NCBI GenBank assembly: GCA_963662795.1
Contig: OY759746.1
Coordinates: forward strand, 1,696,001-1,760,000
DNA: 64,000 nucleotides
Source: Spirochaetia bacterium
GTDB lineage: Bacteria > Spirochaetota > Spirochaetia > CADAEX01
Reading direction: 5' to 3'
A program made the translations under genes and the position numbers. Below are positions 16,130 to 36,505 of this stretch, piece after piece. Below the pieces are notes generated by a model. The model was given only the letters and a program-made list of their open reading frames with translations, was not told the DNA's origin and did no database searches. How positions within the stretch are numbered: the first letter of the stretch is position 1; each line of letters begins with the position of its first letter.

Positions 16130-17197
16130 ATGAATGTACCTGAAAAAATGAAGGCTGCGGTTCTTTTTGACTGGAATGACGTAAGAGTGGTCGAAAGGCC
16201 TGTTCCGTCACCCGGTGCGGATGAAGTTCTGATTAAAGTTGAGTCTTGTTCTATATGCGGCGGCGACGTGAAAATAATAACAAGGGGAATGCTTAAACAG
16301 CCTCCCATGGGAGATTTCATCATCGGACATGAATATGCCGGGATTATAGTGAAGAAAGGATCTTCAGTTGATGAGTTTAATATCGGAGACAGGGTAACGG
16401 TTGAGGTTCACAAGGGCTGCGGAAGATGCAAGAACTGTCTCGACGGAAAGCAGACTGCCTGTTTAAACTACGGCAATAAGGAGAAGGGGCATATTGCCAA
16501 CGGTTTTACAACAAACGGCGGTTTTGCCGAATATGCGGTGAATCATGTCAATACAGTAAGTCTTATCCCTGATAATATTTCATTTGACGAGGCTACCATG
16601 ATTACGACCATTGGTACGCCTCTTTTCGGTATTTCACGGAACGGCGGATTTATTGCAGGTGATTCAGTCCTTGTAATAGGGCCCGGTTCCATTGGCCTGA
16701 TGGCTGTTCAGTGCGCAAAAGCGCTCGGCGCCGGAAAAGTAATACTTGCCGGAACCAGAAAGGAAAGACTGGCCCTTGGGAAAAAACTCGGGGCGGAATA
16801 CACAGTCAATGTGAGAGAGGAAGATGCAATCGCATATGTCAAATCCCTTACGGGCGGACACGGCGCAGACCTTGTTCTTATTGCTTCCGGTACAACAGAT
16901 GCATTCCAGCTTGCCTTAAGGACAGTAAGAAAAGGGGGAGATATAACAATTCTCGCCCATTTTGAGGATCCTGTCACTATTGATGTAGGGCTTGCTGTTC
17001 AGAATATGAACAACATTTTTACCATCAGGGGCGAAGGCCGCCAGTGTGTTCACAGGGGACTTGAGCTTATGAGAGAAGGTAAGGTCAGCGGCAAGGAAAT
17101 TATTACCCACTCATTCAGGCTTGATCAGATAAAGGAAGCTTTTGAAGTATTTATGGGAAGAAAAGAAGGCGCCATCAAGGTTGTAGTTCATCCATAA
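16130..17197 (+). CDS. Zn-dependent dehydrogenase, paralog set A
   Basis: ICGGD, GHEY, CGRCKNC...C, GHIANGFTTNGG, GPGSIG, FTIRGEG. Confidence 0.9.
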   Translation: MNVPEKMKAAVLFDWNDVRVVERPVPSPGADEVLIKVESCSICGGDVKIITRGMLKQPPMGDFIIGHEYAGIIVKKGSSVDEFNIGDRVTVEVHKGCGRCKNCLDGKQTACLNYGNKEKGHIANGFTTNGGFAEYAVNHVNTVSLIPDNISFDEATMITTIGTPLFGISRNGGFIAGDSVLVIGPGSIGLMAVQCAKALGAGKVILAGTRKERLALGKKLGAEYTVNVREEDAIAYVKSLTGGHGADLVLIASGTTDAFQLALRTVRKGGDITILAHFEDPVTIDVGLAVQNMNNIFTIRGEGRQCVHRGLELMREGKVSGKEIITHSFRLDQIKEAFEVFMGRKEGAIKVVVHP

Positions 17198-17239
17198 CCG
17201 TCGGATTAAAAAATTTATTATTATTCAGGAGTAAAAAAC

Positions 17240-18160
17240 ATGAGTGATATTTATAGATATATGGATCTTGGTATAGTTCATTTTAAGGCTTTCCCTGAGA
17301 TTGTTGACGGCGGCGGTGCGATTATCGATTCGCTGAAAAAACTTGTCGAAGATGAATTCTGGACTGCTGTAGAGATAGGCTGGATCAAGGATGATAAGAA
17401 AAGAAGCGAAGTCAGAAAACTTCTTGAAATATCGGCCATGAAAGTATGTTATGCCTGCCAGCCGAGGGTATTATCCCAGAAACTTAATTTAAACTCTTTT
17501 GACAAGGCGGAAAGGCGCAAGGCAATTGAGGGTGTGAAAAAAGGTATTGATGAGGCATACCATATCGGTGCGACATCAATCCGCGTACTTTCCGGAAAAG
17601 ACCCGGGAGATGAAAAACGGGAAGAGGCAAAAAAGATTTTTGTTGATTCTCTGTCGGAACTGTGTGAATACAACCGTGACTTTGGCGATGCAATGCTTTA
17701 TATGAAAATTTTTGACAGGGATATTGATAAAAAGGCCCTGATCGGACATTTCAGTGACGCGGCAGATGTAGCGGAAGCGGTTTACTCGAAATACAAAAAC
17801 TTCGGAGTGCTTGCAGATCTTTCCCATTTTCCTCTTTTGAGGGAAAAACCCGAAGAAGCAATTCCTCTTGTTGAGAAATTCCCTATGCATTTTCATCTCG
17901 GCAATTGTATAATGAGAGACCGAAAACATCCCCTGTACGGAGATCTTCAGCCCAGGTTCGGAATTCCCGGCGGCGAGACTGATGTTAAAGAGGTTGCGGA
18001 CTTTTTCAGGCTTCTGCTTAAGAGGAAGCTTGTTTCTCCCGAAAAACGCCCTGTTGTAAGTGTAGAGGTGAGGCCGCTATTGATGGAAGAATACTCCGAA
18101 GCCATTATTGCACAGGCAAAAAGGGTAATTAAGCTTGCATGGGCGGCAGCACAGGAATAA
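17240..18160 (+). CDS. Sugar-phosphate isomerase/epimerase-like TIM-barrel protein
   Basis: AP-endonuclease-2/xylose-isomerase-like pattern: DLSHFPL, HFHLGN, YGD..PRFG, SVEVRP. Confidence 0.75.
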   Translation: MSDIYRYMDLGIVHFKAFPEIVDGGGAIIDSLKKLVEDEFWTAVEIGWIKDDKKRSEVRKLLEISAMKVCYACQPRVLSQKLNLNSFDKAERRKAIEGVKKGIDEAYHIGATSIRVLSGKDPGDEKREEAKKIFVDSLSELCEYNRDFGDAMLYMKIFDRDIDKKALIGHFSDAADVAEAVYSKYKNFGVLADLSHFPLLREKPEEAIPLVEKFPMHFHLGNCIMRDRKHPLYGDLQPRFGIPGGETDVKEVADFFRLLLKRKLVSPEKRPVVSVEVRPLLMEEYSEAIIAQAKRVIKLAWAAAQE

Positions 18161-18261
18161 AAATATTAAGATACCCTTAAATAAACAGAAATTTATGTTT
18201 ATAATAAATAGAAGATAAGCAATATATAAATATTACAATAAACTAACAAAGGAGTTTTTTA

Positions 18262-19260
18262 ATGAAAAATTTTATGAAAATAACAGTTGCAGCAGTTTTA
18301 TTGATTGCATCTGTTTCCTTCGTTTTCGCGGCAGGCGGTAGTGAAGCTGCGTCTGAAGCTGCAGAAACAAGTGTTAAGTTTCCTGAAAAGCCGATAAGCT
18401 TTCTTATCCCGTTCGGAGCAGGCGGAGATGCCGACCTTCTCGGAAGGGCACTTGTAAGTTCAATGGATAAGATAGTAGGCCAGCCGGTTGTTCCTGTAAA
18501 CAGGCCTGGCGCGGGCGGCGGTATAATGTACGGCGAACTTCACAAAGCAGCACCGGACGGATACACAGCCGGATGGAGCTCTACTTCAATTCTTACGACA
18601 ACTATCATGGGCAATGTTCCTTTCCCCTATACCGATTTTGAAAATCTCTGTGTTGTTGGATATACATCCATGCCGATTGCAGTTCTTGCAGACTCACCGT
18701 GGAAAACCACAGATGAACTTGTCGCATGGGCAAAAAAGAACCCCGGCAAGCTTAAAATCGGTAACGCCGGTACAGGAAGCGGAACACACCTTACAGCGGT
18801 AATGTTTCAGCAGGCAACAGGTGTTCAGGCAATCCATGTTCCGCTTGGGGCAGAAAGAAGAATTGCAAGCCTCCTCGGAGGAGAAGTTGAAGCTGTATGC
18901 GTACCTCTTCCTGAAATTGCTCCCCAGGTAAATGCCGGCAAAGCAAGAATCCTCGGAGTATCAACTGCAAAAAGAGATCCGTCATTTCCCGATGTTCCTT
19001 CATTTAAAGAACAGGGCTATGATGTTGTAATGGACCTTTTCAGGGGTGTAAGTCTTCCCAAGGGAACAGACCCTGCTGTCGTAGCCATTCTCGAAAAAGC
19101 TTTCAAGGCTGCTTCAGAGAGCAAGGAATTCCAGGACCTTTCAAACAAAACCGGTTTTGTTGTTGATTTCAAGGGCAAGGCTGATTTTGAAGTAGTCCTC
19201 GCTGATCAGTATAAGAGAGTTTACGCCGCAATGGATGCCGGCGGGTTGATTAAAAAATAA
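18262..19260 (+). CDS. tctC: Tripartite tricarboxylate transporter substrate-binding protein
   Basis: FPEKPI..IPFGAGGDAD, NRPGAGG, PDGYT, GTGSGTH. Confidence 0.92.
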   Translation: MKNFMKITVAAVLLIASVSFVFAAGGSEAASEAAETSVKFPEKPISFLIPFGAGGDADLLGRALVSSMDKIVGQPVVPVNRPGAGGGIMYGELHKAAPDGYTAGWSSTSILTTTIMGNVPFPYTDFENLCVVGYTSMPIAVLADSPWKTTDELVAWAKKNPGKLKIGNAGTGSGTHLTAVMFQQATGVQAIHVPLGAERRIASLLGGEVEAVCVPLPEIAPQVNAGKARILGVSTAKRDPSFPDVPSFKEQGYDVVMDLFRGVSLPKGTDPAVVAILEKAFKAASESKEFQDLSNKTGFVVDFKGKADFEVVLADQYKRVYAAMDAGGLIKK

Positions 19261-19276
19261 TAACCACAATAAATAA

Positions 19277-19329
19277 TTCCGGTTTCAGCACTGTTTAAGC
19301 TTTAAGCTGCCGCAGTGCCGGGCCGGGGA
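19277..19329 (+). terminator. Long stem-loop after tctC
   Basis: TTCCGGTTTCAGCACTG...CAGTGCCGGGCCGGGGA imperfect inverted repeat. Confidence 0.5.
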
Positions 19330-19400
19330 TATTTCAGGTTTATGTCATACAGGCTGAAAAATGCAGTTTTCTTTAAACAGCTTTATATCGGATTATAATA

Positions 19401-19856
19401 ATGAAAAAAATTAATATTATCTTGTCTGCCGTTATTTACCTCTTCGCAATCTTTTATTTCTGGCAGATTCTTATGCTTCCTGACAGAAACATGCCGGGAA
19501 CTTTAAAAAGCAGTTTTATGCCTACCCTGCTTTTTGTATTATTGATGATAGTAAACACAGTTTTCCTTGTTGTTTCTTTAGTCAAACCGTGTCTTGAGAA
19601 ATGTGATTATTTTATACATAAATACGAAATATTGGGTATTTTAAAGGTTGTTTCTCTTATCATCGGCTATATCTTTATGATGCGAATTGTAGGATTTGCC
19701 ATAATCACCCCTGTTATTGTTTTTCTTCTCATGAAAATGATGGGGGCGGTAAAATTAAAAGAGATGATCCTTACGTCTGTCCTGGTCTCTGCGTCAGTAT
19801 ATTTGTTGTTTGTCGTTGTTTTCAGGGTGCAGCTGCCTGGCGGAATGATCATATAG
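19401..19856 (+). CDS. tctB: TTT small membrane subunit
   Basis: 151 aa, four TM segments, C-terminal VFRVQLPGG; between tctC and tctA. Confidence 0.85.
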   Translation: MKKINIILSAVIYLFAIFYFWQILMLPDRNMPGTLKSSFMPTLLFVLLMIVNTVFLVVSLVKPCLEKCDYFIHKYEILGILKVVSLIIGYIFMMRIVGFAIITPVIVFLLMKMMGAVKLKEMILTSVLVSASVYLLFVVVFRVQLPGGMII

Positions 19857-19920
19857 ATAATAATCATATAAATATTTCTGTATGATTATTCCGAATACAA
19901 ATTAATTTAGGTGATAATAC

Positions 19921-21450
19921 ATGTTAGAATATATCTTGGCTTCAATGTTTGAAGTATTGAAATGGCAAAACCTTTTAGCGTCTTTGCTGGGGGTCGCGTT
20001 CGGACTGTTTATCGGGGCAACCCCCGGACTCACAATATCCCTGGGAATGGTGCTGCTGCTTCCAATAACTTTTTCTCTTGATCCTGTTACATCTGTCTGC
20101 CTTCTTCTGGGCCTTTACGCGGCCGGAATGACGGGCGGTTCATTTTCTGCGATACTTCTCAATATTCCGGGAACACCTTCGGCATCGGCGACAGCTATTG
20201 ACGGGCATATTATGGCTCAGCAGGGGAAAGCAGGTCAGGCCCTGGGAACCGCAATTATCGCGTCTTTCATCGGAGGGATAATCGGGCTTTTCTGTCTTTC
20301 AGCGATATCCCCTTTTCTCGCGAAAGCTGCGCTCAAATTCGGAGCGCCTGAACTTTTCGCCCTTGTTCTGCTGGGAATTACACTGATATGCAGCTTCGGA
20401 CAGCAGTCTCTGTCGAAAAGCGTGATAGCAGGACTGATAGGTTTGATAATTATGACAGCGGGTCTTGATTCAATGACGGGAACGCCCCGGTTTACATTCG
20501 GTATGATGGACCTTCAGGCAGGGATCCCTTTCCTTCCTGCAATGATAGGGCTGTTTGCGATTCCTCAGATAATTGCAGGATTGACAAGCAAGTTGAGCGT
20601 CATTCCGAAGTATGATAAAAAAATAACAGGTATACTGCCGAAATTTTCAGATATCGGAAAAAGAATGAGAGCAATACTGACCGGGGCCTTTATCGGAACA
20701 GGTATAGGGGCAATTCCGGGAGCGGGCGGGGCTATCGCTGTTTTTCTCGCTTACGACGCATCAAAAAAGATTTCAAAGGATAAGGAAAATTACGGCAACG
20801 GCTCAGCTGATGGAATTGCGGCGCCTGAGGCTGCCAATAACGCGGTAGGGGGCGGAGCCCTTATACCGATGCTTACGCTCGGAATACCCGGGGATCCCAT
20901 CACCGCGATACTTCTCGGATCACTTATGATTCACGGTCTTATACCGGGTCCCCTTCTTTTTGAAACAAATCCCCAGTTTGTATTTTCAATCTTCTGGGCA
21001 TTTTTAATTGCAAATATTTTTAATCTTGTTGTTTCATTTACCAGCATTAATTTCTGGGTAAGAATCCTGAAAGTACCGCAAAGGATACTCCTTCCAATAA
21101 TTCTTGTTCTCTGTGTTGTCGGTTCCTATTCACTCAGAAATACTTTTTTTGATACAGGTATAATGATATTTTTCGGAATCCTTGCTTTCTTTATGAAAAA
21201 ATACGGATTTCCGGTTGTTCCTTTGCTTCTGGCGCTGATTCTCGGGCCTAACCTTGAAGAACACCTCAGGATGTCTCTTATAATAAGCCAGGGCAATCCG
21301 ATGGTCTTTGTAAGACATCCGATAAGTCTTTTCTTTATTATTGTATCACTAATCTCACTTACCGCTCCTTTTCTCGTGCCTGCCATTAAAAAAGAACTGG
21401 CAAAGGGCGCGGAGAAATGTACGCCGAAGAGTGATGATATAAATAAATAA
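19921..21450 (+). CDS. tctA: TTT large permease subunit
   Basis: GATPGL, ILLNIPGTPS, APEAANNA, LTLGIPG motifs. Confidence 0.95.
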   Translation: MLEYILASMFEVLKWQNLLASLLGVAFGLFIGATPGLTISLGMVLLLPITFSLDPVTSVCLLLGLYAAGMTGGSFSAILLNIPGTPSASATAIDGHIMAQQGKAGQALGTAIIASFIGGIIGLFCLSAISPFLAKAALKFGAPELFALVLLGITLICSFGQQSLSKSVIAGLIGLIIMTAGLDSMTGTPRFTFGMMDLQAGIPFLPAMIGLFAIPQIIAGLTSKLSVIPKYDKKITGILPKFSDIGKRMRAILTGAFIGTGIGAIPGAGGAIAVFLAYDASKKISKDKENYGNGSADGIAAPEAANNAVGGGALIPMLTLGIPGDPITAILLGSLMIHGLIPGPLLFETNPQFVFSIFWAFLIANIFNLVVSFTSINFWVRILKVPQRILLPIILVLCVVGSYSLRNTFFDTGIMIFFGILAFFMKKYGFPVVPLLLALILGPNLEEHLRMSLIISQGNPMVFVRHPISLFFIIVSLISLTAPFLVPAIKKELAKGAEKCTPKSDDINK

Positions 21451-24839: not shown

Positions 24840-26102
24840 ATGAGGAGACATGTGAAATTTCAATCTCTTCTTCTGACAGCAGTGATGCTGCTTACTGCAG
24901 TATTTAATGTATCTGCAGGAGGGAAAAAGGAAGCTGATAATCCGACAGAATTTAAAATGGGATTCATGACTTCACTAAGCGGTACTTTTGCTGCGGTAGG
25001 TGAGACACAGAGAATGGGTACGCTTCTTGCTGTTGAAGAAATCAACGCGAAAGGCGGCCTTGACATGCCATGGGGAAAAGTAAAAGTCACAACAAGCATT
25101 AAAGATGATGAGGCCAAGCTTGATGTTGGTGTCAGAAGATACAGAGAGCTTATGGGTGAAGGGATAAATGCGCTTACAGGTACAGCATGGAACCCTATGG
25201 CGGCGGCTATCAATGAAGAAGGAAAAATTACCCCGATTCCATATCTTGCCGGATGCGTTCCTGCTCTTGATTCTTTTAAAAAGGGTAATCCTGCAATAGG
25301 AACATTCTCAGTAGCATTTACTCCATGGAGTATCGGCTATCTGGCAGGAGCTTCGGTTATCAAGCAGATGGGCAAAAAAACCATCTTCTATGTATCAAGA
25401 GCTGATTCATGGGGAAGCACAATATATGAAGGACTTAAAGCTGCAATTGCTGAATACGGCGGGGAGATTGTAGGCTTTGCTGAATATCCTCTCGGGAATG
25501 TGGACTTTTCAGCCGCAATAAACAAAGCGCTGGAAGTTAAACCCGATGTATTCATGGCCTGCCAGTTTGGAGGAGATGCCATTGCGATATTCAAACAGGC
25601 TTATGATATGGGTCTTCACAAAGAGTCTCTTATGTTTAATACATGGACAACAAATGTAGTAGGGAAAGGAATTCCTCCAGCCGCTCTTAAAGAACTTTAT
25701 GCTCTTAATTTCTATTATTACAATCTTGAAGGTTTCGGAAATCCGGAACTTGAGAAGAAAGCAAAAGCATATACTGACGCTCACGTGAAAATGTTTAACC
25801 AGCCGCCTGATGCATACGGAACAATCTCCTACATGGCTGCCAAAATTATTTTTGAGGCAGTAGAAAAAACCGGTACATTTGATCCTGTAAAAGTATCAGA
25901 ATATATTAAAACTGCAACATTCGATACTGTAAAGGGCAAGATGGCATTCAGGGAGGATAATGAACTTCTCGGTGATTACATGGCATTCATAGTAAAGGGA
26001 AAGGCTAAAGAGGAAATGAAAGATCCCAGCGATGTATGGAAAGTAACCGGTTCTTTCGGCGGACCCACAACTCTGCCGTCGCTTAAATCACTTGGTTATT
26101 AA
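24840..26102 (+). CDS. LIV-type (HAAT) ABC substrate-binding protein 1
   Basis: SLSGTFAAVG, LAVEEINAKGG, DFSAAINKA; leader SAGGKKE. Confidence 0.88.
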   Translation: MRRHVKFQSLLLTAVMLLTAVFNVSAGGKKEADNPTEFKMGFMTSLSGTFAAVGETQRMGTLLAVEEINAKGGLDMPWGKVKVTTSIKDDEAKLDVGVRRYRELMGEGINALTGTAWNPMAAAINEEGKITPIPYLAGCVPALDSFKKGNPAIGTFSVAFTPWSIGYLAGASVIKQMGKKTIFYVSRADSWGSTIYEGLKAAIAEYGGEIVGFAEYPLGNVDFSAAINKALEVKPDVFMACQFGGDAIAIFKQAYDMGLHKESLMFNTWTTNVVGKGIPPAALKELYALNFYYYNLEGFGNPELEKKAKAYTDAHVKMFNQPPDAYGTISYMAAKIIFEAVEKTGTFDPVKVSEYIKTATFDTVKGKMAFREDNELLGDYMAFIVKGKAKEEMKDPSDVWKVTGSFGGPTTLPSLKSLGY

Positions 26103-26144
26103 TTCCCGGTACTGGCCGGATTTTACGGATATGTAAAACTTTTT

Positions 26145-26184
26145 AAAACAGCATTCCGTAGTTTATCGGGATGCTGTTTTTTTT
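26145..26184 (+). terminator. Intrinsic terminator between the two binding-protein genes
   Basis: AAAACAGCATTCCG-tagtttat-CGGGATGCTGTTTT followed by TTTT. Confidence 0.75.
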
Positions 26185-26215
26185 ACTTTGCTTAAAAATT
26201 ATTTCAGGAGGAAAT

Positions 26216-27474: not shown

Positions 27475-27852
27475 ATGGTACCAAAATATGAGGTCAGGAA
27501 AAAAATCAGTGATGTTCCATGGGAAGAGCATTTCATGGATGACGGCGGAAGTAAAATTAAATGGATATATACCCGGGAAAAGGACGGAACACCTATAACT
27601 GTAATGCTTATAGAACTCAGGGAAGGACTTTCGCTCCCTGAGCATGTACACCGTGACCAGCCTGACCTGATTCATGTACTTGAAGGCGAGGCAACAATGT
27701 TTATTGAAGGCGAAGGGGAATTCCCCCTTGAAGCAGGAATGGTAATCATGGTGCCGCCAAATACCAGGCATACAATAAAAAACATTAAAAAAACTGTAAG
27801 GCTTTACAATGTTTTTGCACCGGCCATGCCGTATATGCCGGCAAAAAAATAG
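27475..27852 (+). CDS. Cupin domain protein
   Basis: PEHVH...D..HVLEG, VPPNTRH. Confidence 0.85.
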   Translation: MVPKYEVRKKISDVPWEEHFMDDGGSKIKWIYTREKDGTPITVMLIELREGLSLPEHVHRDQPDLIHVLEGEATMFIEGEGEFPLEAGMVIMVPPNTRHTIKNIKKTVRLYNVFAPAMPYMPAKK

Positions 27853-27855: not shown

Positions 27856-28884
27856 ATGAATGCAATGGTCCTGAGGGAGTATAATAATTCCCTCGTAATG
27901 GAAAAAGTTTCTGATCCCTGTCCCCTTCCGGACGAAGTGGTCGTTAAGGTTCACGGGGCGGGGATGTGTTATACAGACATCAAAATTGTTGCGGGTCAGC
28001 TTTCGAAATTTATAAAGCTTCCGCATATTCCTGGACATGAAATAGCCGGTGAGATTGTTGAAACCGGTAAAAACGTGAAGAATTTAAAACCGGGGCATAA
28101 GGGGGTTGTCTATTCCATAATTGGATGCGGCGACTGTCTTTACTGCCGCAGCGGCAAAGAGAATCTATGCATTAATACCAGGAGGATAGGATTTGAGGAA
28201 AACGGAGGATTTGCCGAATATGTAAAACTTCCCGCCTATAATTTCTGCCCGTTTAACAGCAGTATGCCTTTTGAAAAAATGGCAATACTGCCGGATGCTG
28301 TAGGAACTCCGTATCATGCATTCAAGGAAATTGCAAATCCCGGTTCGGCTCAGTCTGTGTTGATTGTAGGTGCCGGAGGTCTGGGTATACATGCTGTTCA
28401 GCTTGCAAAACATAAAGGATCATATGTCATTGTATGTGATATAAAAAATGATGCGCTCGAACTTGCAAAAAAATACGGGGCAGATGTATGTTTTAATCTG
28501 AAAAATGAAAACGATATAGTAAGTGCTGTTTATAACGCTACTGCCGGTCTTGGGGCGGATATTGTTCTTGAGGGAGTCGGGAAGGAGATAACCTTCTCGT
28601 GGTCGTTAAGATGTCTTAAAAAAGGGGGAACTTTAATTGTTATGGGCTATGATCCTGTCAATAAAGTTCCTGTTCCCTTCATTGATATGCATAATAATGA
28701 ATGGAAAATAGCAGGGACAAAGATTACGACAAAGCAGGATCTGCTTGAAGTAATTGATCTTGTGGATAACGGTATTATAGATCCGGTTGTTACCAGGGTG
28801 ATAAATCTTGGTGAAATCAACAGCGGCCTTGATCTTGTCCGTAATCATGAAATACCCGGCAGGGTTTGTGTGAAAATTGAATAA
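27856..28884 (+). CDS. Zn-dependent dehydrogenase, paralog set B
   Basis: MCYTD, LPHIPGHE, CGDCLYC...C, GAGGLG, Asp after the Rossmann beta-B strand (VCDIK). Confidence 0.9.
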   Translation: MNAMVLREYNNSLVMEKVSDPCPLPDEVVVKVHGAGMCYTDIKIVAGQLSKFIKLPHIPGHEIAGEIVETGKNVKNLKPGHKGVVYSIIGCGDCLYCRSGKENLCINTRRIGFEENGGFAEYVKLPAYNFCPFNSSMPFEKMAILPDAVGTPYHAFKEIANPGSAQSVLIVGAGGLGIHAVQLAKHKGSYVIVCDIKNDALELAKKYGADVCFNLKNENDIVSAVYNATAGLGADIVLEGVGKEITFSWSLRCLKKGGTLIVMGYDPVNKVPVPFIDMHNNEWKIAGTKITTKQDLLEVIDLVDNGIIDPVVTRVINLGEINSGLDLVRNHEIPGRVCVKIE

Positions 28885-28903: not shown

Positions 28904-29971
28904 ATGAAAACACCGGTTTATATGGCTGCCGCAATAGTTAAAAGCTCTAATAACGTTCAAATTGAAAAAATACCTGTTCCCGTTCCGGGACCGGAGGAAG
29001 TCCTGATAAAGGTTGAATCCTGCGCAGTATGCAGCACAGATTTAAGTCTTATAACTCAGCCGGGTCCGGGGCAGCCTGCATTCGGATCTTTTATCCCCGG
29101 CCATGAATATTCCGGTACAATAGCCGCAAAGGGAGAATCTGTTGATGAAGTTGAGATAGGTGACCGGGTCGCGGTTGAAGTCCACAAAGGGTGCGGAAGG
29201 TGCATTAACTGCAGAAACGGTTATTATACATGCTGTCTGAACTGGGGAAATAAAAAAAGGGGACACAGGGCAAACGGAATGACTACATATGGAGGATTTG
29301 CCCAGTATGCAGTCAATCATATCAGTACTGTTTATAAAATATCTGAAAATGTATCATTTGATGAAGCTTCACTGATTACAAATGCCGGTTGTGTATTATA
29401 CGGTTTTGAAATAAGCGGAGGTTATTTTGTAGGTGATCAGGTTGCTGTTATCGGAGATGGTCCGCTTGGCCTTATTTCTCTTCAGATTGCAAAAACTCTT
29501 GGCGCGGATAATGTTTCGCTTGTCGGCCTTGACGATTTCAAGATGGATATTGCCAGAAATCTTGGGGCCGATAGTGTAATTGATGTTAAAAAAAACGATC
29601 CGGTAAGCATATTGAAACCTGCCTTTAATCTGGGTGTAGACCTTGCAATTGAAGCTTCAGGATCCGAAGCCGGCATCAGAACCGCTCTTAAAATACCGAA
29701 GTGGGCGGGAAAGGTCCTTCTTCTGGGTATCCCGTCAGGTGAAATCAGGACTGACCTCAGGGAATTTGCCCGCGGAAACAAATATCTCTTTACTGTCAGG
29801 GGCGAGGGGTTGTCCAATTGCGGGAAAGCTGTCTCTCTTCTTAAAAATAAAAAACTTTCACTTGAAAGTCTGATTACGCACAGGTTTGATCTTAAGGATT
29901 TAAATAAAGCCCTTGAAGTGCATAATTCATCTGAAATAAAATCAATTAAAGTCGTAGTCAACCCATCCTGA
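28904..29971 (+). CDS. Zn-dependent dehydrogenase, paralog set A
   Basis: VCSTD, GHEY, CGRCINC, GHRANGMTTYGG, FTVRGEG. Start ATG 28904 after AGAGGA. Confidence 0.9.
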   Translation: MKTPVYMAAAIVKSSNNVQIEKIPVPVPGPEEVLIKVESCAVCSTDLSLITQPGPGQPAFGSFIPGHEYSGTIAAKGESVDEVEIGDRVAVEVHKGCGRCINCRNGYYTCCLNWGNKKRGHRANGMTTYGGFAQYAVNHISTVYKISENVSFDEASLITNAGCVLYGFEISGGYFVGDQVAVIGDGPLGLISLQIAKTLGADNVSLVGLDDFKMDIARNLGADSVIDVKKNDPVSILKPAFNLGVDLAIEASGSEAGIRTALKIPKWAGKVLLLGIPSGEIRTDLREFARGNKYLFTVRGEGLSNCGKAVSLLKNKKLSLESLITHRFDLKDLNKALEVHNSSEIKSIKVVVNPS

Positions 29972-29993: not shown

Positions 29994-30037
29994 TTGACAT
30001 TGTATATAACTATGCTATAATTTTACTGTATTACAAT
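29994..30037 (+). promoter_or_regulatory. Promoter plus FadR-type operator (site 3)
   Basis: TTGACA 29994-29999, TG-c-TATAAT 30016-30021, ACTGTATTACAAT 30025-30037. Confidence 0.75.
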
Positions 30038-30085: not shown

Positions 30086-30847
30086 ATGAGCGATGTGTTA
30101 ATAGAAACAAAAGGTGTATCCAAGATTTTCGGCCTGTTCAGGGCAGTCCATGATGTTGATTTCAGTGTCAGGGAATATGATGCTGTCGGCATTATCGGCC
30201 CTAACGGGGCAGGCAAAACTACATTTATCAATATCCTGACCGGCGAGTATGTTCCGGAAGAAGGAACTGTTTTATTCCGGGGAGAAGATATTACGAATCT
30301 GAAGAGCGAAAAAAGGGTTGCAAAAGGGATTATCAGAACATTTCAGCTTGTTCATGTTTTTGACAGCATAACAGTCTTTGAAAACCTGGCACTTTCAGTA
30401 TACAGAAAAAGAGAAGGAAAAGCTTTTCCTTCTAATCTTTATACTACAGTATTCAGTAAAAACAGGGCGATTACTGATGCTGCCGAAAAAGCGCTTGAAG
30501 TTTTTGACCTTAAGAAAGACAGGAACCAGCTGGTAGGAAATCTTTCGCTCGGCAGCCAGAAAAGGCTTGAAATAGCGATGGTCTGGGCTGCAGACCCTGA
30601 GGTTTTTATTCTTGATGAACCTTTTGCAGGAATCAGTGATCATGAAATTGATGATATTATTGCGATTCTTAAAAAACTTGTGCATAAAAAAACCATTATC
30701 ATAGTAGAGCATAAGCTTTCAAAGCTTACGGAAATTGTTGATACATTATGTGTAATGCATGAAGGAAAAATGATTGCTTCAGGACCATGCGAGGAAACAT
30801 TAAATAACCCGATAGTGAGAAAATCCTACTGGAAAATCGAAGAGTGA
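30086..30847 (+). CDS. LIV-type ABC ATP-binding protein (LivG-like)
   Basis: GPNGAGKTT, RTFQ, LDEP, VEH. Confidence 0.92.
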   Translation: MSDVLIETKGVSKIFGLFRAVHDVDFSVREYDAVGIIGPNGAGKTTFINILTGEYVPEEGTVLFRGEDITNLKSEKRVAKGIIRTFQLVHVFDSITVFENLALSVYRKREGKAFPSNLYTTVFSKNRAITDAAEKALEVFDLKKDRNQLVGNLSLGSQKRLEIAMVWAADPEVFILDEPFAGISDHEIDDIIAILKKLVHKKTIIIVEHKLSKLTEIVDTLCVMHEGKMIASGPCEETLNNPIVRKSYWKIEE

Positions 30848-30879
30848 TTTTTGATATATAATTATTCATGGAGTGATAG

Positions 30880-31575
30880 ATGAATCAGGAAAATAAACTT
30901 CTTAATGTTGATAAATTGAATGTCTGTTACGGAAAACTTGCTGTAGTATTTGATGTTTCTGTAAATGTTAACGCCGGAGAGGTTGTTTTTCTTGTCGGCA
31001 GAAACGGGGCAGGCAAGACAACGCTATTAAGAACGATTGCCGGGTTTCTCCAGCCAGCCTCCGGAGAAATTGAATTTAACGGTAAAAATCTCAATAAAAC
31101 AGGTGCCTATAAAACAGCCAGAATGGGACTCAAATATATCCACCAGGATAAACAGGTTTTCGGTGATCTTACAATCAGGGAAAATCTTGAGTTAAGCAGT
31201 TATGCGACAAAGGATTATGACTGGGAACCGGTGTTTAAAATGTTTCCTAAACTTAAAACAATTATTGAAAGAAAAGCAGGTAATTTAAGCGGCGGAGAAA
31301 AACAGATGCTCCTGATAGCAATGGCAATGATAGGAAAACCAGCTCTTGTTATGCTGGATGAGCCGACAGAAGGTCTTGCTCCTCATGTTATCAAGGATCT
31401 TGCTGAAATTTTTAAGGAAATAAGCAAAACCACAACATTGTTTATTGTTGAACAGAATCTGCCTCTGATCGCTGCGATTGCTGACAGGGTTTACTGCATG
31501 AAGGAAGGTAAAGTTGTAAATGAGATTACCAGCAGGGACGATATCGGCAACCTGTGTTTTGAACAATACTTATAA
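30880..31575 (+). CDS. LIV-type ABC ATP-binding protein (LivF-like)
   Basis: GRNGAGKTT, LSGGEKQML, LDEPTEGLAP, VEQN. Confidence 0.93.
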   Translation: MNQENKLLNVDKLNVCYGKLAVVFDVSVNVNAGEVVFLVGRNGAGKTTLLRTIAGFLQPASGEIEFNGKNLNKTGAYKTARMGLKYIHQDKQVFGDLTIRENLELSSYATKDYDWEPVFKMFPKLKTIIERKAGNLSGGEKQMLLIAMAMIGKPALVMLDEPTEGLAPHVIKDLAEIFKEISKTTTLFIVEQNLPLIAAIADRVYCMKEGKVVNEITSRDDIGNLCFEQYL

Positions 31576-31592
31576 AGGTAACAGGAGCTTTT

Positions 31593-32582
31593 ATGAAACT
31601 AAAAAAACTTGAAATACTAGGGCCGGTTTTTATAATACTCGGTCTTTTGATTAGCCGTTATCTGTTTCCAAACAAGATAACCTTTTTTACAGAAATTTCA
31701 ATTTATACAATCTATGTTATGGGAAATAACATCCTGATGGGTTATATGGGATATACCTCGTTCGGGCAGCCGTTTTATTTAAGCTGCGGTGCGTATTCCG
31801 CTGCCATTTATCTTGCATATATCGGCGGCAATGTATTTATCGCGATATTTATTGCATTTCTGGTCGGACTTGCTCTTTCTTTTATTCTGGGGCCAAGTCT
31901 TATGAGGCTGAAAGGGAGCTACTTTACCCTGATAAACGCGTCACTTTGCGCAATAGGAGTCTTTATGTTTGAAAGACTTCTTATCGATATTACCAACGGC
32001 AACGACGGGCTCTGGTACAGGTCAAACATGCACAAAACGCCGTTTCTTGATATCAGGCTTCCGCAGAATTATTTCTTTTTCATACTGATTGTTCTGCTTA
32101 TCGCCCTATACCTTTACAGAAAAATTGACAAATCAGCTCTTGGAACAGTGCTGAAGGCGGCAAGTACCAATCCGAGAAAAATGAGATTTCTCGGATATAA
32201 TGTTTTTGGAATCAGATGGCTGGCTTTTACAATTTCAGTCGTTTTTTCCACGGTAGCTGGTGCTCTTTACTCGGTTAACTTCGGATTTGTCAATCCGAGC
32301 CTCGGGGAAAATTCAAGGGCAATTGAGGTTCTGCTTGCAACTCTTATCGGCGGAATCGGAACAGTATACGGCCCTTTCTTTGGTGCGCTGGGTTTTCTGG
32401 GCATGAAGGATTTTGTCAGCAGCTTTCTCTCAAGATGGGAGTTTGTTGTTGGAATAATGACCCTGATTGTTCTTTTTAGATTCAACAGGGGCCTCTGGGG
32501 AATGATTCAGGATGCAGGAAGTTTTCTTGCAGATACAGGCAGAAAATTTAAAAAGAACAGCATCAAAACTGCAGCAAAATAA
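31593..32582 (+). CDS. LIV-type ABC permease (LivM-like)
   Basis: GYMGYTSFGQ, RLKGSYF, TNGNDG, IGGIGTVYGP. Confidence 0.9.
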   Translation: MKLKKLEILGPVFIILGLLISRYLFPNKITFFTEISIYTIYVMGNNILMGYMGYTSFGQPFYLSCGAYSAAIYLAYIGGNVFIAIFIAFLVGLALSFILGPSLMRLKGSYFTLINASLCAIGVFMFERLLIDITNGNDGLWYRSNMHKTPFLDIRLPQNYFFFILIVLLIALYLYRKIDKSALGTVLKAASTNPRKMRFLGYNVFGIRWLAFTISVVFSTVAGALYSVNFGFVNPSLGENSRAIEVLLATLIGGIGTVYGPFFGALGFLGMKDFVSSFLSRWEFVVGIMTLIVLFRFNRGLWGMIQDAGSFLADTGRKFKKNSIKTAAK

Positions 32583-32598
32583 ATATTGAGAGGAAATT

Positions 32599-33474
32599 AT
32601 GGAAACCTGGTTTACAGCGGTTATATACGGCCTTAGCACAAGCGGAATATTGTTTCTTGTTTCACTTGCATTATCTATCGGTTATGGACTTATGAGAATC
32701 GTCAATATGGAAGCTATGCTCTATTATTCTTTCGGAGCATATGTCACCTATTCAATAGTTACACTGACTGGCAGTTTTTTCCTCGGCGCAGCAGGAGCTA
32801 CTGTTGTCGGGGGTTTGCTGGGCCTTATTGTTGAGACAACACTGCTCAGAAAAGTCTACCACCGGAATATGATGTTTACCATGGTAGTAACATTCAGTGT
32901 TTTTATGATAGGGATTGGAGTTATTCAATTTATTTACGGCCTTGATCCAAAGCCGCTTGCTTCCCCGACTTCGGCAATTATCAGATTCATGAATGTTCAG
33001 ATTCCCCTGTACAGGCTGATTATCATAGTAGTAGCAGTGGTTGCCTATATTCTTATACAGCTGCTTATGAATAAGACAATAACCGGCAAGGCGCTCCGGG
33101 CAGGAATTGAGAACCGCGAAAATGTCGAAGGCCTGGGTGTAAATATCAACAGAATTTTTACAACTACATTTGTAATTGCAAGTGCTTTTGCCGGACTTGG
33201 CGGAGCTCTAAATGCGCCTCTGGTTATGGTAGGCCCCTATATGGGTTTTGATATGCTCCTGACAGCATTTATAACAGTTATTCTTGGCGGCCTCGGAAGT
33301 ATAAAGGGAACCATGGTGGCGGCCCTTATTCTGGGGCAGGTTGTCAGTGTAGGCGGAACGATCTGGGCGCCTCTCGCGTTTGTTGGTCCTTTCATAGTCA
33401 TGTTTATCACTATTCTTATAAGACCTACAGGTCTTTACGGAGTTAAGGGAACAGCATTCGGATTCAATGATTAG
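32599..33474 (+). CDS. LIV-type ABC permease (LivH-like)
   Basis: YGLMRIVN, GKALRA, ILGGLGSIKG, RPTGL. Confidence 0.9.
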   Translation: METWFTAVIYGLSTSGILFLVSLALSIGYGLMRIVNMEAMLYYSFGAYVTYSIVTLTGSFFLGAAGATVVGGLLGLIVETTLLRKVYHRNMMFTMVVTFSVFMIGIGVIQFIYGLDPKPLASPTSAIIRFMNVQIPLYRLIIIVVAVVAYILIQLLMNKTITGKALRAGIENRENVEGLGVNINRIFTTTFVIASAFAGLGGALNAPLVMVGPYMGFDMLLTAFITVILGGLGSIKGTMVAALILGQVVSVGGTIWAPLAFVGPFIVMFITILIRPTGLYGVKGTAFGFND

Positions 33475-33534
33475 ATAAACCTCCCTGCTGTAACAGCAGG
33501 CGGGAGTAAATAATAAAAATACGGGAGTGAGAAA

Positions 33535-34575
33535 GTGGATAAAACAATGAAGGCCTTTGTCCTTGAAAGATATAACAGCCCATTGGTGTTGAAAGATGTT
33601 CCAATGCCGCAGATCGGCGATGATGATGTTCTTGTAAGGGTGAGGGCCGCAGGCATTTGCGGCACAGATTTGAAGATATATACAGGCAAACTTGACGGTA
33701 TTATAAAACTGCCGCATATACCGGGTCATGAAGGGGCAGGTGAGATAGTTAAAACTGGAAAGAATGTTAAAAACATAAAACCCGGGGACCGCGGGATTGT
33801 ATACCACTACATCCCGTGCAGGGACTGTGAGCTCTGCAGAACAGGAAAAGAGAATATCTGTTTTGAAATCAAAAGGACAGGGTTTGAACTTGACGGCGCT
33901 TTCGCTGAGTATATGGCAATCCCGGCATACAATTTCTGCCCTGTTGATGATGAAAAAATGTCATGGTCTGAAATGGCAGTTCTCCCTGATGCGGCCCTTA
34001 CCCCGTATCATGCGTTAAAAACCCTTGGCAAGGTGAAAAAAGGGGCTAAAGTATTAATTATCGGGCTTGGAGGACTTGGCCTTCATGCGGTTATGCTTGG
34101 TAAAATGCTCGGCGCTGATGTTGCCGGCGCTGATATCAGGGATAACTCTCTCACTGAGGCTTTAAAGTATAAAGCGGATATTGTTTTTAACCCTGTTTCA
34201 CAGGACCCAGTTTCTGTGATCAGGGAATGGACAGGCGGACACGGCGCTGATGTTGTGCTTGACGGGGTCGGAACCGGTTCCACATTTCCATGGGCTCTCA
34301 AAAGCCTTAAAAAAGGCGGCAAGCTTGTTTTAATGGGATATGATCCGATTAATCCGGTCCCTCTTGACGCTCTTGGGATGCACTATAACGAATGGGAGAT
34401 AATTGGGGCCCGGCTTGGCACAAAGCAGGAATTAATTGAGCTGATAAATTATACAAAAAATGGTACTTTAAAACCGATTGTTTCGTCTGAGTTTGAAATG
34501 GCCTCGCTTAACCGGGTTTTTACAGAATCGCTGCTTGACAGCATTTACGGAAGGATAGTCTTTAAGGGGCTTTGA
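33535..34575 (+). CDS. Zn-dependent dehydrogenase, paralog set B
   Basis: ICGTD, LPHIPGHE, CRDCELC, GLGGLG, GYDP, MHYNEW shared with 27856. Confidence 0.9.
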   Translation: MDKTMKAFVLERYNSPLVLKDVPMPQIGDDDVLVRVRAAGICGTDLKIYTGKLDGIIKLPHIPGHEGAGEIVKTGKNVKNIKPGDRGIVYHYIPCRDCELCRTGKENICFEIKRTGFELDGAFAEYMAIPAYNFCPVDDEKMSWSEMAVLPDAALTPYHALKTLGKVKKGAKVLIIGLGGLGLHAVMLGKMLGADVAGADIRDNSLTEALKYKADIVFNPVSQDPVSVIREWTGGHGADVVLDGVGTGSTFPWALKSLKKGGKLVLMGYDPINPVPLDALGMHYNEWEIIGARLGTKQELIELINYTKNGTLKPIVSSEFEMASLNRVFTESLLDSIYGRIVFKGL

Positions 34576-34658: not shown

Positions 34659-34703
34659 TTGACAATTCTGTAAAATGATGGTACAGTAGTATTGTCATAC
34701 AAG
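34659..34703 (+). promoter_or_regulatory. fadR promoter plus autoregulatory operator (site 4)
   Basis: TTGACA 34659-34664, 17 bp, TG-g-TACAGT 34682-34687, ATTGTCATACAAG 34691-34703. Confidence 0.75.
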
Positions 34704-34720
34704 GTATAATTTTAAAAAAG

Positions 34721-35422
34721 GTGATGATAATGGATTTTAAAAAAATTGACCGCGTGAGTATGTCAGAAGAGATTGTTGAATATCTCAAAAATGAAATTTT
34801 AAGCAGAAAACTTAAATCAGGGCAGCGACTTCCTGCTGAAGAATCTCTGGCGGAAAGTATGGGAGTGGGCCGCGGAACTGTACGTGAAGCGCTAAAGGTT
34901 CTGATCCATATGGGGCTTGTAGAAAGAAAAAGAAACGGGACCTTTGTAACAGAGGGTAAACTGAAGCCCGATGTAGAGTTCAGACTTGATGAATACAGGG
35001 ATCTGGTTGAGATAATTGAAGTCAGAAAAGTCATTGAACCTGCGCTTGCCGGTTTTGCGGCTAAAAGGGCAGATAAAAAAACTATTGATAAAATTGCCCT
35101 TGAACTGGATGAAATGAAAAACGGTACAAAAAATGTTGAAGATTTTATACTTCATGACAGCCGTTTCCATGATTTTATTTTTGATGCATCAGGAAATACA
35201 ATTCTTGAGAATTTTATAAAAAGTTTTAAAGACCTTATGATGAAAAACCAGGCAGTAGTTCTTATGGAAAGGTACAGCAATATAATGCCTAAATCCCTGG
35301 ACTATCATGAAAAAATATACAAGGCAATAAGTATTGGAGATGAACATCTGGCTTTTTCATATATGTATGAGCATATTGTGGATGTCGAGAATGAGTTCAA
35401 GATAATAATTGAAGGAGAATAA
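34721..35422 (+). CDS. FadR/GntR family transcriptional regulator
   Basis: RLPAEESLAESMGVGRGTVREAL, GTFV, EVRKVIE, D..FH, H..I. Confidence 0.93.
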   Translation: MMIMDFKKIDRVSMSEEIVEYLKNEILSRKLKSGQRLPAEESLAESMGVGRGTVREALKVLIHMGLVERKRNGTFVTEGKLKPDVEFRLDEYRDLVEIIEVRKVIEPALAGFAAKRADKKTIDKIALELDEMKNGTKNVEDFILHDSRFHDFIFDASGNTILENFIKSFKDLMMKNQAVVLMERYSNIMPKSLDYHEKIYKAISIGDEHLAFSYMYEHIVDVENEFKIIIEGE

Positions 35423-35428
35423 AATCTG

Positions 35429-36505
35429 ATGGTTAATATACCTGAACATATGAAAGCGGTAGTTCTTATGGGGCCTGACAAACTTGAGGTTAGGGACATG
35501 AAGGTTCCCGTTCCCGGGCCTGTGGATGTCCTTATCAGGGTCCAGTCATGCGCATTGTGCGCTTCGGATACAGGGCTGATACACAAGCCTTTTCCGGGCC
35601 AGCCTCCATACGGGGAATTTATTATCGGACATGAGTATTCAGGTACAGTTGCAGCCCTTGGCGGGACTGTTGATGAGTTTGCAGTGGGCGACAGGGTAAC
35701 GGTGGAAGCGCATAACGGATGCGGAAGGTGCAGAAACTGCCGTCTTGGAAACTATACAGGCTGTCTTAATTACGGGGATACCGCCAAAGGCCACAGGGCC
35801 AACGGATTTACAACAAACGGCGGCAATGCCCAGTATGTGATAAACCATATAAATACGGTTCACAAAATAGCGGATAATGTCTCATTCGATGAAGCTTCCC
35901 TTGCGACAAACCTGGGATGTGTATTATACGGATTTGAGACGCTCGGCGGATTCATAGCGGGCGATACAATTGTTATTGTCGGCCCGGGTCCTTTGGGCCT
36001 TAGCGCTGTACAGGCTGCAAGGGCACTTGGTGCCGGGAAGATAATACTGCTTGGAACAAGGGACTCAAGACTCAGGATTGCAGAGAATACAGGCGCCGAT
36101 ATTATCATCAATACAAAAAAACAGGATCCCATGGAAGTAATAATGAGGGAAACAGGCGGAAAGGGGTGCGATATCGCGATAGAGGCATCCGGTTCCGAGG
36201 CAGGACTTGGGCTTTCAATCAAATCAACAAAGAGAATGGGAAAAATCCTGCTTCTGGCTTTCCCCCATAAACCCTTTCCTGCTGATTTTGAAGACCTTGC
36301 GCTTAACAATAAACATATCTTTACAGTAAGAGGGGAAGGATGGGCGAATGTAGGAAGGGCGGCTGTCTTTTTGAATAAGGGCATTGTTGACCTTAAACCG
36401 CTCATTACACACACATTTCCTCTTGCAAAAATAAATGAAGCGTTTGACACATTCAACAACAGAATTGACGGCGCGATAAAAGTAATTTCAAAACCCCAGG
36501 AGTAG
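35429..36505 (+). CDS. Zn-dependent dehydrogenase, paralog set A
   Basis: LCASD, GHEY, CGRCRNC, GHRANGFTTNGG, FTVRGEG. Confidence 0.9.
   Translation: MVNIPEHMKAVVLMGPDKLEVRDMKVPVPGPVDVLIRVQSCALCASDTGLIHKPFPGQPPYGEFIIGHEYSGTVAALGGTVDEFAVGDRVTVEAHNGCGRCRNCRLGNYTGCLNYGDTAKGHRANGFTTNGGNAQYVINHINTVHKIADNVSFDEASLATNLGCVLYGFETLGGFIAGDTIVIVGPGPLGLSAVQAARALGAGKIILLGTRDSRLRIAENTGADIIINTKKQDPMEVIMRETGGKGCDIAIEASGSEAGLGLSIKSTKRMGKILLLAFPHKPFPADFEDLALNNKHIFTVRGEGWANVGRAAVFLNKGIVDLKPLITHTFPLAKINEAFDTFNNRIDGAIKVISKPQE

Follow-up and report, generated by a model that had tools for sequence, protein, structure and literature searches.

Why does one catabolic region of a bacterial genome carry several zinc-dependent dehydrogenases that fall into two sets with apparently different cofactor preferences? 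The question is raised by a 64-kb stretch (64,000 nucleotides of contig OY759746.1; hereafter, the window) in the genome of a Spirochaetia bacterium, a single contig of 3.93 Mb whose closest public relatives are uncultured Spirochaetia. An initial annotation had sorted five zinc-dependent medium-chain dehydrogenases/reductases (Zn-MDRs) into a set A (A1, A2, and A3) and a set B (B1 and B2), and had proposed that A/B pairs form a redox epimerase system that oxidizes with NAD+ and re-reduces with NADPH. We found that A and B are two different Zn-MDR subfamilies that belong to one conserved, uncharacterized pathway module. With a probability of about 0.5, they catalyze different redox steps of one conserved catabolic pathway and are not a dedicated epimerase. 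The pathway's substrate would be a hydroxylated, probably carboxylated, and possibly cyclic compound. At the level of sequence the two sets do differ in cofactor signature; among the several mechanisms considered, an epimerase is possible but not the best supported.

Two Zn-MDR subfamilies with different cofactor signatures

The five genes are as follows.

16130..17197, + strand: A1, set-A Zn-MDR of the A1-type clade, G-T-R after beta-B
27856..28884, + strand: B1, set-B Zn-MDR, alcohol dehydrogenase (ADH)-like, Asp after beta-B
28904..29971, + strand: A2, set-A Zn-MDR, G-L-D after beta-B and no NADP-type triad
33535..34575, + strand: B2, set-B Zn-MDR, last gene of an ATP-binding cassette (ABC) importer unit, Asp after beta-B
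35429..36505, + strand: A3, set-A Zn-MDR, first enzyme gene of a conserved operon, G-T-R after beta-B

All five are intact open reading frames (ORFs) with both the GroES-like domain PF08240 and the Rossmann domain PF00107. The count of five had been too low for the window as a whole, which holds seven Zn-MDRs, namely these five plus genes 10042 and 11256; both domains are found in all seven (E <= 1e-19, above gathering scores). B1 and A2 lie 19 nt apart, and between B2 and A3 there is a GntR gene alone. For A2, the previously proposed ATG at 28904 is the better-supported start, with AGAGGA just upstream and a 19-nt spacer after the B1 stop. A TTG at 28877 was considered as the A2 start and dropped in favor of this ATG.

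We aligned the seven MDRs of the window and recovered every motif string on which the two sets had been defined. Set A carries GHIANGFTTNGG in 16130, GHRANGMTTYGG in 28904, and GHRANGFTTNGG in 35429, and also a second motif that reads FTIRGEG in A1 and FTVRGEG in both A2 and A3. B1 and B2 share IKLPHIPGHE and GYDP, together with MHNNEW in B1 and MHYNEW in B2. The catalytic Cys, His, and Glu and the four structural-zinc Cys are invariant across the seven aligned proteins (C43, H67, E68, C97, C100, C103, and C111 in A1 numbering). The third zinc-ligand position differs between A and B; it is Asp in B, and this D152 is invariant throughout the B family. Because the A paralogs are 44 to 52% identical to one another and B1 is 50% identical to B2, the likeness within each set reflects homology rather than chance. 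A and B are only 25 to 32% identical, so neither set is nearer to the other than it is to the remaining MDRs encoded in the window.

To place these features in a family context, we aligned each query with its 120 best database relatives (121 sequences per alignment). At E <= 1e-30 there were about two thousand relatives each for A and B among 8,000 candidates scored. The motifs are family traits. In the A family, GHRANGFTT is nearly invariant, R-G-E is present in 121/121, and the Glu of GGxAEY is replaced by Gln in 105/121. In the B family, the His of LPH occurs in 104, GYDP in 87, and MHYNEW in 75 of the 121 sequences. A1 departs from its family in having GHIANG where the other members examined all have GHRANG. 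The same Ile is found in orthologs that are 99% and 95% identical, so the substitution has been maintained, which suggests that a substrate contact may be altered in A1.

The end of strand beta-B reads VCDIK in B1, GADIR in B2, AGTRKER in A1, LGTRDSR in A3, and VGLDDFK in A2. Across the A family, the triad at this place is Gly in 120/121, Thr or Ser in 119/121, and Arg in 120/121; across the B family, the residue is Asp in 108/121, with Ala in 9, Ser in 3, and Thr in 1. In a HMMER alignment of A1 with the threonine dehydrogenase (TDH) of P. horikoshii (2d8a), the Gly of A1 stands opposite the Glu of SEPSD. Thermoanaerobacter brockii ADH has Gly198-Ser199-Arg200, which we take to match an NADP-type triad. 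In NADP-dependent class VIII ADHs, a Gly223-Ser/Thr224-Gln/His225 triad touches the 2'-phosphate and Asp223 marks NAD dependence, according to a study of vertebrate ADHs (PMC4028059). As in class VIII, the A1 and A3 types have G-(T/S)-R at the aligned place, with Gly where NAD-dependent relatives have an acidic residue, although the substrate pocket and the subfamily differ. A1 and A3 thus have a small residue, a Ser/Thr, and a basic residue after beta-B; A2, with G-L-D, does not. It is reasonable, from these signatures, to predict NADP-type binding for A1 and A3 and NAD-type binding for B. The proposed cofactor split therefore holds across each family, but A2 does not follow it.

Neither set could be named from known families. 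No NCBIfam model reached its cutoff for A or B, and the solved structures recovered for them were generic relatives at no more than 35% identity. The best solved alignments were to threonine dehydrogenases and a ketose reductase for set A and to tetrameric NAD-dependent ADHs for set B. The predicted model of A3 (mean predicted local distance difference test score [pLDDT], 92.0) matched 5vm2 best, with a template modeling (TM) score of 0.88; the closest folds among solved structures were those of TDH, sorbitol dehydrogenase, and unassigned MDRs, none above 31% identity. Its least confident parts are two A-specific loops at residues ~121 to 130 and ~301 to 310. The model of B2 (pLDDT, 95.5) has among its nearest solved folds the NAD-dependent tetrameric ADH 1rjw (TM, 0.92). 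Names carried by homologs in source databases were generic ("alcohol dehydrogenase catalytic domain," "L-iditol 2-dehydrogenase," and "bacteriochlorophyllide A dehydrogenase"). We rejected L-threonine 3-dehydrogenase as an identity for set A, with scores against TIGR00692 and NF003808 (cutoffs, 458 and 380) of 221.5 and 207.5 bits for A1, 193.3 and 193.7 for A2, and 183.1 and 183.9 for A3. IolM (NF041097; cutoff, 450) was likewise rejected for both sets (A1, 199.8; A2, 184.4; A3, 201.9; B1, 168.6; B2, 178.0 bits).

We built a tree from the three A proteins of the window and 43 A-type ORFs of related loci. It separated an A1-type clade (G-T-R, GGFAEY), an A3-type clade (G-T-R, with GGxAQY in most members), and a small group of the A2 type (G-L-D). 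The A2 subtype contained only the window gene and two near-identical relatives.

A and B in a conserved module

We compared the surroundings of A and B in other genomes and metagenome contigs (loci and genomes are identified by L and G numbers, respectively). The recurrent module consists of a Liv-type ABC or Tct importer, B, a GntR regulator, A, a UPF0261 protein, a 4-hydroxy-2-oxoglutarate aldolase (HOGA)-like lyase of the DHDPS family, a creatininase-family hydrolase, a short-chain dehydrogenase/reductase (SDR), and a D-2-hydroxyacid dehydrogenase (2HADH). The order GntR-A3-UPF0261-DHDPS-creatininase-SDR-2HADH, or one close to it, is found at L005 to L012, L019, L035, and L036. At eight loci (L005 to L008, L010, L011, L019, and L023), B comes last, behind the permease genes, and B-GntR-A is kept at seven (L005 to L008, L011, L019, and L038). 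Among the 33 genome-contig loci of the A3-seeded set, A is directly followed by UPF0261 in 13, most of which go on with DHDPS, creatininase, SDR, and 2HADH. Seven of these 13 have B in the fetched stretch, always last after Liv-type permeases and usually with GntR between.

Using the B alignment, we also seeded 80 metagenome loci, 38 of which carry a B-type ORF (>=43% identity to B1 or B2). These B-seeded loci have the same neighbor families as the A3-seeded ones. A is also present in 12 of the 38; when we considered the 10 with at least 1.5 kb on both sides, 4 carried A. B and A are adjacent at L043, L049, L061, L062, L067, L074, and L075, in genome G120, and in a second copy upstream of the window. 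At seven loci (L044, L046, L047, L048, L052, L066, and L085), B directly precedes UPF0261 with no A between.

A1-type genes have a context of their own. They travel with an AP_endonuc_2 gene and TctCBA, and B was in the fetched stretch only at L023. The pair of A1-type and AP_endonuc_2 genes is kept at L009, L019, L026, L027, L031, L033, and L034, and two G-T-R paralogs of A1 type stand together at L020, L021, L025, L030, and L032. Units of the A1 and A3 types are often neighbors (L009, L019, L036, and L033 with L007). Creatininase-family and UPF0261 genes stand ahead of A1-type genes at L024, L026, L027, and L034. L053 has the order creatininase-UPF0261-[MDR]-AP_endonuc_2-TctCBA, with B standing in for A1 as the MDR. 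Creatininase-family, MDR, and AP_endonuc_2 genes occur together, as IolN, IolM, and IolO do, at L026, L027, L034, and L053. We found no published description of the module in the literature searched, a search whose coverage excluded most subscription journals.

The module genes that surround A and B in the window are listed below.

17240..18160, + strand: AP_endonuc_2 (xylose-isomerase-like TIM barrel) gene, accompanies A1-type genes
18262..21450, + strand: TctC, TctB, and TctA, tripartite carboxylate-type importer downstream of A1, arrangement conserved
24840..27463, + strand: two Peripla_BP_6 (Liv-type) substrate-binding proteins
27475..27852, + strand: small metal-binding-type cupin, recurs directly before B or before DHDPS-B
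30086..33474, + strand: two ABC ATPase and two permease genes (Liv type)
34721..35422, + strand: GntR/FCD regulator between B2 and A3
36511..37743, + strand: UPF0261-family protein, putative ATP-dependent kinase
37740..38675, + strand: DHDPS-family lyase, start overlaps the UPF0261 stop by 4 nt
38702..39580, + strand: creatininase-family hydrolase, IolN paralog with 27% identity to the IolN of the window
39776..40546, + strand: SDR, Asp after beta-2 (ITDIN)
40573..41553, + strand: 2HADH-family protein, Asp after beta-B (VANDDF)

Several of these proteins could be placed more closely. The UPF0261 protein matches PF06792 (183.6 bits) and PF23189 (208.1 bits), and its best solved relative is the UPF0261 entry 9mpy (5.3e-60). 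The DHDPS-family protein is closest among solved structures to human HOGA (3s5o, 3.5e-52), with the best DapA at 1.1e-41. The AP_endonuc_2 protein has one NCBIfam match, a weak one to IolO (37.9 bits; cutoff, 300). The nearest solved relatives of TctC are BugD and a terephthalate-binding protein, carboxylate binders going by their names. The first Liv-type substrate-binding protein gave no specific substrate hint, the nearest solved structures being unassigned branched-chain/urea-type proteins at 1e-19 or weaker. The cupin gene precedes B or DHDPS-B at L043, L049, L051, L055, L056, and L061. With the AP_endonuc_2 protein, the cupin makes two non-redox isomerase/epimerase-type folds in the module. 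The Asp after the second strand, read by eye, is present in both the SDR and the 2HADH, which would leave A as the module's sole enzyme of NADP type.

A sigma-70-like site (29994 to 30021) that matches at 12 of 12 positions and has the extended -10 TG lies in the 115 nt that separate A2 from the first ATPase gene. This suggests, as a hint only, that the ATPase-permease-B2 genes may be transcribed apart from the substrate-binding protein-cupin-B1-A2 genes; overall, the promoter and terminator scan did not exceed shuffles (44 sites versus 36.3 +/- 7.5).

Co-occurrence across genomes

The epimerase proposal had pointed to co-occurrence of A and B across genomes as a check. In a phylum sample of 151 genomes, with thresholds that we set at E <= 1e-80 for A and E <= 1e-75 for B, A was present only in G000, G022, and G120 and B in exactly those three, which represent three families. 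In G120 the order is B, A, UPF0261. We then examined nine distinct A-bearing genomes that lack B at the A locus by searching for B elsewhere (E <= 1e-60). B was found in four of the nine (G154, G156, G158, and G160), the G158 copy lying just past the fetched stretch, and one further genome (G161) had only a weak 38% match. In the other four (G155, G157, G159, and G162), whose completeness was not established, there was no B at this cutoff, and two of these, G155 and G157, have complete A3-type operons. By our own standard, which is not a published one, co-occurrence is not obligate. The expected association was thus borne out by the shared presence of A and B in 3 of the 151 genomes and by their frequent placement side by side or in neighboring operons in several phyla, but it fails as a rule, as there are A-only genomes and B-only loci.

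Some of the multiplicity within this genome has a simple origin. About 80 kb upstream, at genome positions 1648236 to 1654557 (L001/L002), there is a 6.2-kb duplicate in which window positions 33521 to 34568 (B2) recur at 98.0% and positions 35403 to 40572 (A3 to SDR) at 99.2% DNA identity. The duplication is recent and segmental, and it copied B2 and A3-UPF0261-DHDPS-creatininase-SDR. In the duplicate, B and A are adjacent, with the GntR gene missing between them, and a 92%-identical copy of the cupin gene comes before the pair. DAO/Fer2_BFD, Pyr_redox_2, and DUF1667 genes, together with two split transketolase pairs, stand ahead of the upstream copy. The multiplicity of A and B in the window is due to paralogy (A1, A2, and A3 types; B1 and B2) plus recent segmental duplication. 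L006, whose A3 is 94% identical, lacks the B1-A2 pair between its cupin and ATPase genes.

Transhydrogenase-like genes at the operon end

The A/B cycle had also been offered as an explanation for transhydrogenase-like genes encoded nearby.

41580..46015, + strand: NuoE-like, NuoF-like, and 684-amino-acid GltD-like iron-sulfur flavoprotein genes, putative Stn/Nfn-Bfu-like NAD(P)H-ferredoxin complex

The NuoE-like gene begins 27 nt after the 2HADH gene, and its product scored 153.4 bits against NF005722 (cutoff, 141). The NuoF-like protein has two extra [4Fe-4S] motifs. The third subunit aligns with PRK12814 from end to end, its 753.6 bits being below the cutoff of 916, and has a C-terminal 2x[4Fe-4S] domain without a large NuoG/molybdopterin-like part. 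NuoE-, NuoF-, and GltD-like NADPH-binding subunits are common to the window and to the known systems Stn (Sporomusa-type Nfn) and Nfn-Bfu, and the three genes of the window are consecutive. PMC7483475 describes Stn and Nfn-Bfu as encoded by consecutive genes and StnC as a 126-kDa fusion of GltD-like and NuoG-like parts. The window has no such fusion (about 900 to 1,240 amino acids); since its third subunit is shorter, at 684 amino acids versus the 126-kDa StnC, the complex is putatively a shorter relative of Stn.

The same three genes follow the operon in L005 and, after two inserted genes, in L007. In L006, this position (14237 to 16608) is occupied by genes for proteins of 295 and 495 amino acids that pass NfnA- and NfnB-type models (PRK06222, 402.4 versus 220 bits; TIGR01316, 629.4 versus 471.75 bits). 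Reading the model names, we regard this as a putative NfnA/NfnB-type pair. G000 has no relative of the L006 NfnB closer than 41%, and G151, the genome of L006, has no relative of the window NuoF closer than 49%. One NADP-linked bifurcating-type system thus appears, from the genes, to have been swapped for another at one operon end. Transhydrogenase-type genes are not adjacent in L009, L011, L012, or L035, and unrelated genes follow in L012 and L035. The proposed link of the complex to A and B gains from the NfnAB-type genes at the same position in L006 but is confined to close relatives. The exchange supports a probable connection between NADP(H)/NAD(H) balancing and the operon.

Proposed pathway and alternatives

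Gene content and order, their conservation, the family-wide motifs, and the fold class come directly from the data; from these we infer cofactor use, step order, step direction, and substrate class as follows. B, which is ADH-like, of NAD type, and placed at the end of the importer operon, would most likely oxidize the imported compound as a feeder enzyme tied to uptake. A, which resembles TDH and polyol dehydrogenases, has the NADP-type triad, and is the first gene of the GntR-controlled core operon, would perform a second redox step. The carbonyl product would be opened or hydrolyzed by the creatininase-family enzyme, by analogy with IolG, IolM, and IolN, after which the SDR and 2HADH may act on the product. 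Phosphorylation by the UPF0261 kinase and cleavage by the HOGA-like lyase would follow. In this spirochete lineage, the NADP(H) of A may be balanced against NADH and ferredoxin by the co-located bifurcating-type complex.

Several observations weigh against this scheme. The creatininase-family protein scores 78.8 bits on the IolN model (cutoff, 245), no better than on the creatininase model; with 27% identity to IolN and no preference for that model, ring opening is an analogy only. Oxidation with NADP+ by A would be unusual, as NADP-type enzymes are often reductive, which fits the direction proposed initially. The importer types (Liv and Tct) fit an amino-acid-like or carboxylate substrate better than a neutral cyclitol. 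The Asp after beta-B is absent from 13 of the 121 B relatives, and the transhydrogenase-type genes are adjacent only where A3 identity is >=79%. Finally, in the more distant relatives L009 (14360 to 16878) and L011 (14112 to 16562), the genes immediately behind the A3-type operon are transaldolase-like, RpiB, and transketolase genes, which hints that products enter sugar-phosphate metabolism.

Despite these points, we favor distinct and probably successive steps over an obligate couple because of the A-only and B-only arrangements, the occurrence of A1 mostly without B, the lack of the triad in A2, and the presence of three other candidate partners or isomerases. The alternative that survives best, although we consider it unlikely, is that B uses NAD+ to oxidize a hydroxyl and A uses NADPH to reduce that same carbonyl again from the opposite face, which would turn the imported stereoisomer into the one that the core pathway takes, with a Stn/Nfn-type complex repaying the NADPH. 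Like known paired epimerase systems, the window encodes two dehydrogenases together (B1-A2 and B2/A3), an arrangement that recurs elsewhere. The adjacency of B and A in distant lineages, their identical phyletic pattern over the 151 genomes, the family-wide NAD-type and NADP-type signatures, and the presence, in close relatives, of one or the other of two NADP-linked bifurcating-type complexes behind the operon all agree with such a couple. Against it stand the complete A3-type operons of G155 and G157 without a B found (G159 and G162 likewise had none, and G161 had the 38% match), the seven loci at which B stands alone before UPF0261, and the A1-type genes, which are near B only at L023 and often occur as two G-T-R paralogs. 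A2 is the only A that directly adjoins a B in the window, and because it has G-L-D, the B1-A2 pair shows no NAD/NADP split. Epimerization could also proceed without redox chemistry, through the cupin or the AP_endonuc_2 protein, and the NAD-type SDR is equally possible as a partner of A, as is the 2HADH with its Asp. A more elaborate form of the idea is that B-A is a portable cassette for NAD+ oxidation and NADPH reduction that inverts or relocates a stereocenter of a hydroxylated carboxylate, feeds the UPF0261/creatininase pathway, and, in this spirochete lineage, has its NADPH paid for by its own bifurcating transhydrogenase, Stn/Bfu-like or, in a sister genome, NfnAB; this we regard as rather improbable.

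It is very unlikely that A and B are interchangeable, analogous enzymes for one step that differ in cofactor use, both kept in some genomes for redox flexibility or a wider substrate range. Such an exchange would account for B in the slot before UPF0261 at seven loci, where A sits elsewhere, and for B where A1 normally stands in L053. It accords poorly with the conservation of A and B together in many loci and with their divergence, which includes 25 to 32% identity, the different third zinc-ligand position, and the invariant A-specific loop GHRANGFTT. The idea that the dehydrogenases are functionally unrelated and merely gathered with separate operons in a catabolic island, to which the mosaic of at least five transporter/regulator units, the 10 of 14 genomic MDR matches within 94 kb, and the placement of A1 in its own unit with Tct would lend themselves, is the least probable of all, given that A and B have the same presence pattern in 151 genomes and share neighbor genes across Spirochaetota, SAR324, deltaproteobacterial, and metagenomic contigs.

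Comparison with known systems

The nearest analog of successive oxidation steps is encoded in the window itself.

145 to 12311: inositol operon with a ROK regulator, a sugar ABC importer, IolG, IolN, IolM, an IolO-like gene, a second GFO-family gene, and Zn-MDR 11256

The Thermotoga maritima-type oxidative inositol pathway reportedly runs IolG-IolM-IolN-IolO, as described by Rodionova and colleagues in 2013. We took the names and functions of these families from NCBIfam (NF041097, NF041098, NF041099, and TIGR04380). In the window, IolG (469.8 bits; cutoff, 355), IolN (526.4; cutoff, 245), and gene 10042, which is IolM (529.9; NF041097 cutoff, 450), all passed; the IolO-like gene scored 234.2 bits, under its cutoff of 300. 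This true iolG/N/M set lies at 5066 to 11238, about 20 kb upstream of the module. Gene 11256, an additional Zn-MDR without an assigned family name, closes the operon together with 10042. The module resembles the Iol pathway in combining an MDR dehydrogenase, a creatininase-family hydrolase, and an AP_endonuc_2 epimerase, and in placing two dehydrogenases before the hydrolase. It differs in that the A proteins score 184 to 202 bits against the IolM cutoff of 450 and the hydrolase 78.8 against the IolN cutoff of 245. The first dehydrogenase would be an MDR (B) here and is a GFO-family enzyme in Iol, and A has the NADP-type triad where the IolM of the window has Glu. The module also adds the UPF0261 kinase, HOGA-like lyase, SDR, and 2HADH and uses Liv-type or Tct importers.

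True redox couples are known as well. LgnH and LgnI invert one sugar-acid stereocenter by oxidation and re-reduction, as described in PMC12632266. These two dehydrogenases are co-encoded, and a kinase and an aldolase then act, as would be the case in the module; in contrast to LgnH and LgnI, A and B are not obligate partners, and we saw no enolase- or IlvD-type dehydratase gene in the module. IdnD and IdnO of E. coli are a similar couple. IolG/IolX/IolW of B. subtilis and HpsO/HpsP are paired dehydrogenases, some with NAD versus NADP preference, that interconvert stereoisomers via a ketone. All of these enzymes belong to families other than those of A and B, the Iol enzymes to GFO/IDH/MocA.

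For UPF0261, PMC12624787, published in 2025, gives the ATP-dependent kinase MarK as the sole catalytic activity reported in the family. There, MarK of Novosphingobium aromaticivorans, which shares its UPF0261 domain family with the window protein, phosphorylates aromatic ketone monomers in an aerobic lignin-monomer pathway. The UPF0261 gene of the window differs in lying among sugar-acid-like enzymes in anaerobes.

Other genes of the window

According to an ORF listing combined with Pfam scans, almost every gene of the window reads on the + strand, and the genes group into a mosaic of catabolic units, with at least five transporter/regulator units within the 64 kb. Genome-wide there are 14 MDR matches at E <= 1e-20, 10 of them inside 94 kb. 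Upstream of A1, between a GntR/FCD regulator and a divergent hydrolase-cupin pair, positions 13349 to 14731 encode an apparently polytopic membrane protein of 460 amino acids with no Pfam or NCBIfam match. The interval from 21479 to 24730, which separates the Tct unit from the Liv-type unit, has genes for a C_GCAxxG_C_C protein, a CoA-disulfide-reductase-like flavoprotein with a C-terminal rhodanese domain, and LrgA/LrgB-like membrane proteins; C_GCAxxG_C_C and CoA-disulfide-reductase-like genes also lie 3' of TctA in L033. Another catabolic unit, behind a LacI regulator, spans 47392 to 58530. It encodes an HpcH-family aldolase, a class-III aminotransferase, Dak1/Dak2, a ureidoglycolate-lyase-like protein, an Fe-ADH, an NMT1-type ABC importer, an RraA-like protein, a second 2HADH, and a short DUF386 ORF of 101 amino acids that spans model positions 1 to 83 of 145.

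Implications

A and B are new subfamilies of the well-known MDR superfamily, and the pathway looks like a new variant of the oxidize-hydrolyze-phosphorylate-cleave scheme. A portable B-A cassette with its own transhydrogenase would, if true, amount to a device for cofactor balancing that serves one catabolic route alone. Independent of that idea, the swap of two unrelated NADP-linked bifurcating-type complexes is a hint that cofactor balancing may, in some anaerobes, be tied to one particular route of catabolism. Copies of the module are found in genomes of Spirochaetota, SAR324, deltaproteobacteria, and other anaerobes, and many contigs of sediment-type metagenomes carry it too. Assigning functions to A and B would name two MDR subfamilies and would probably reveal a new catabolic route.

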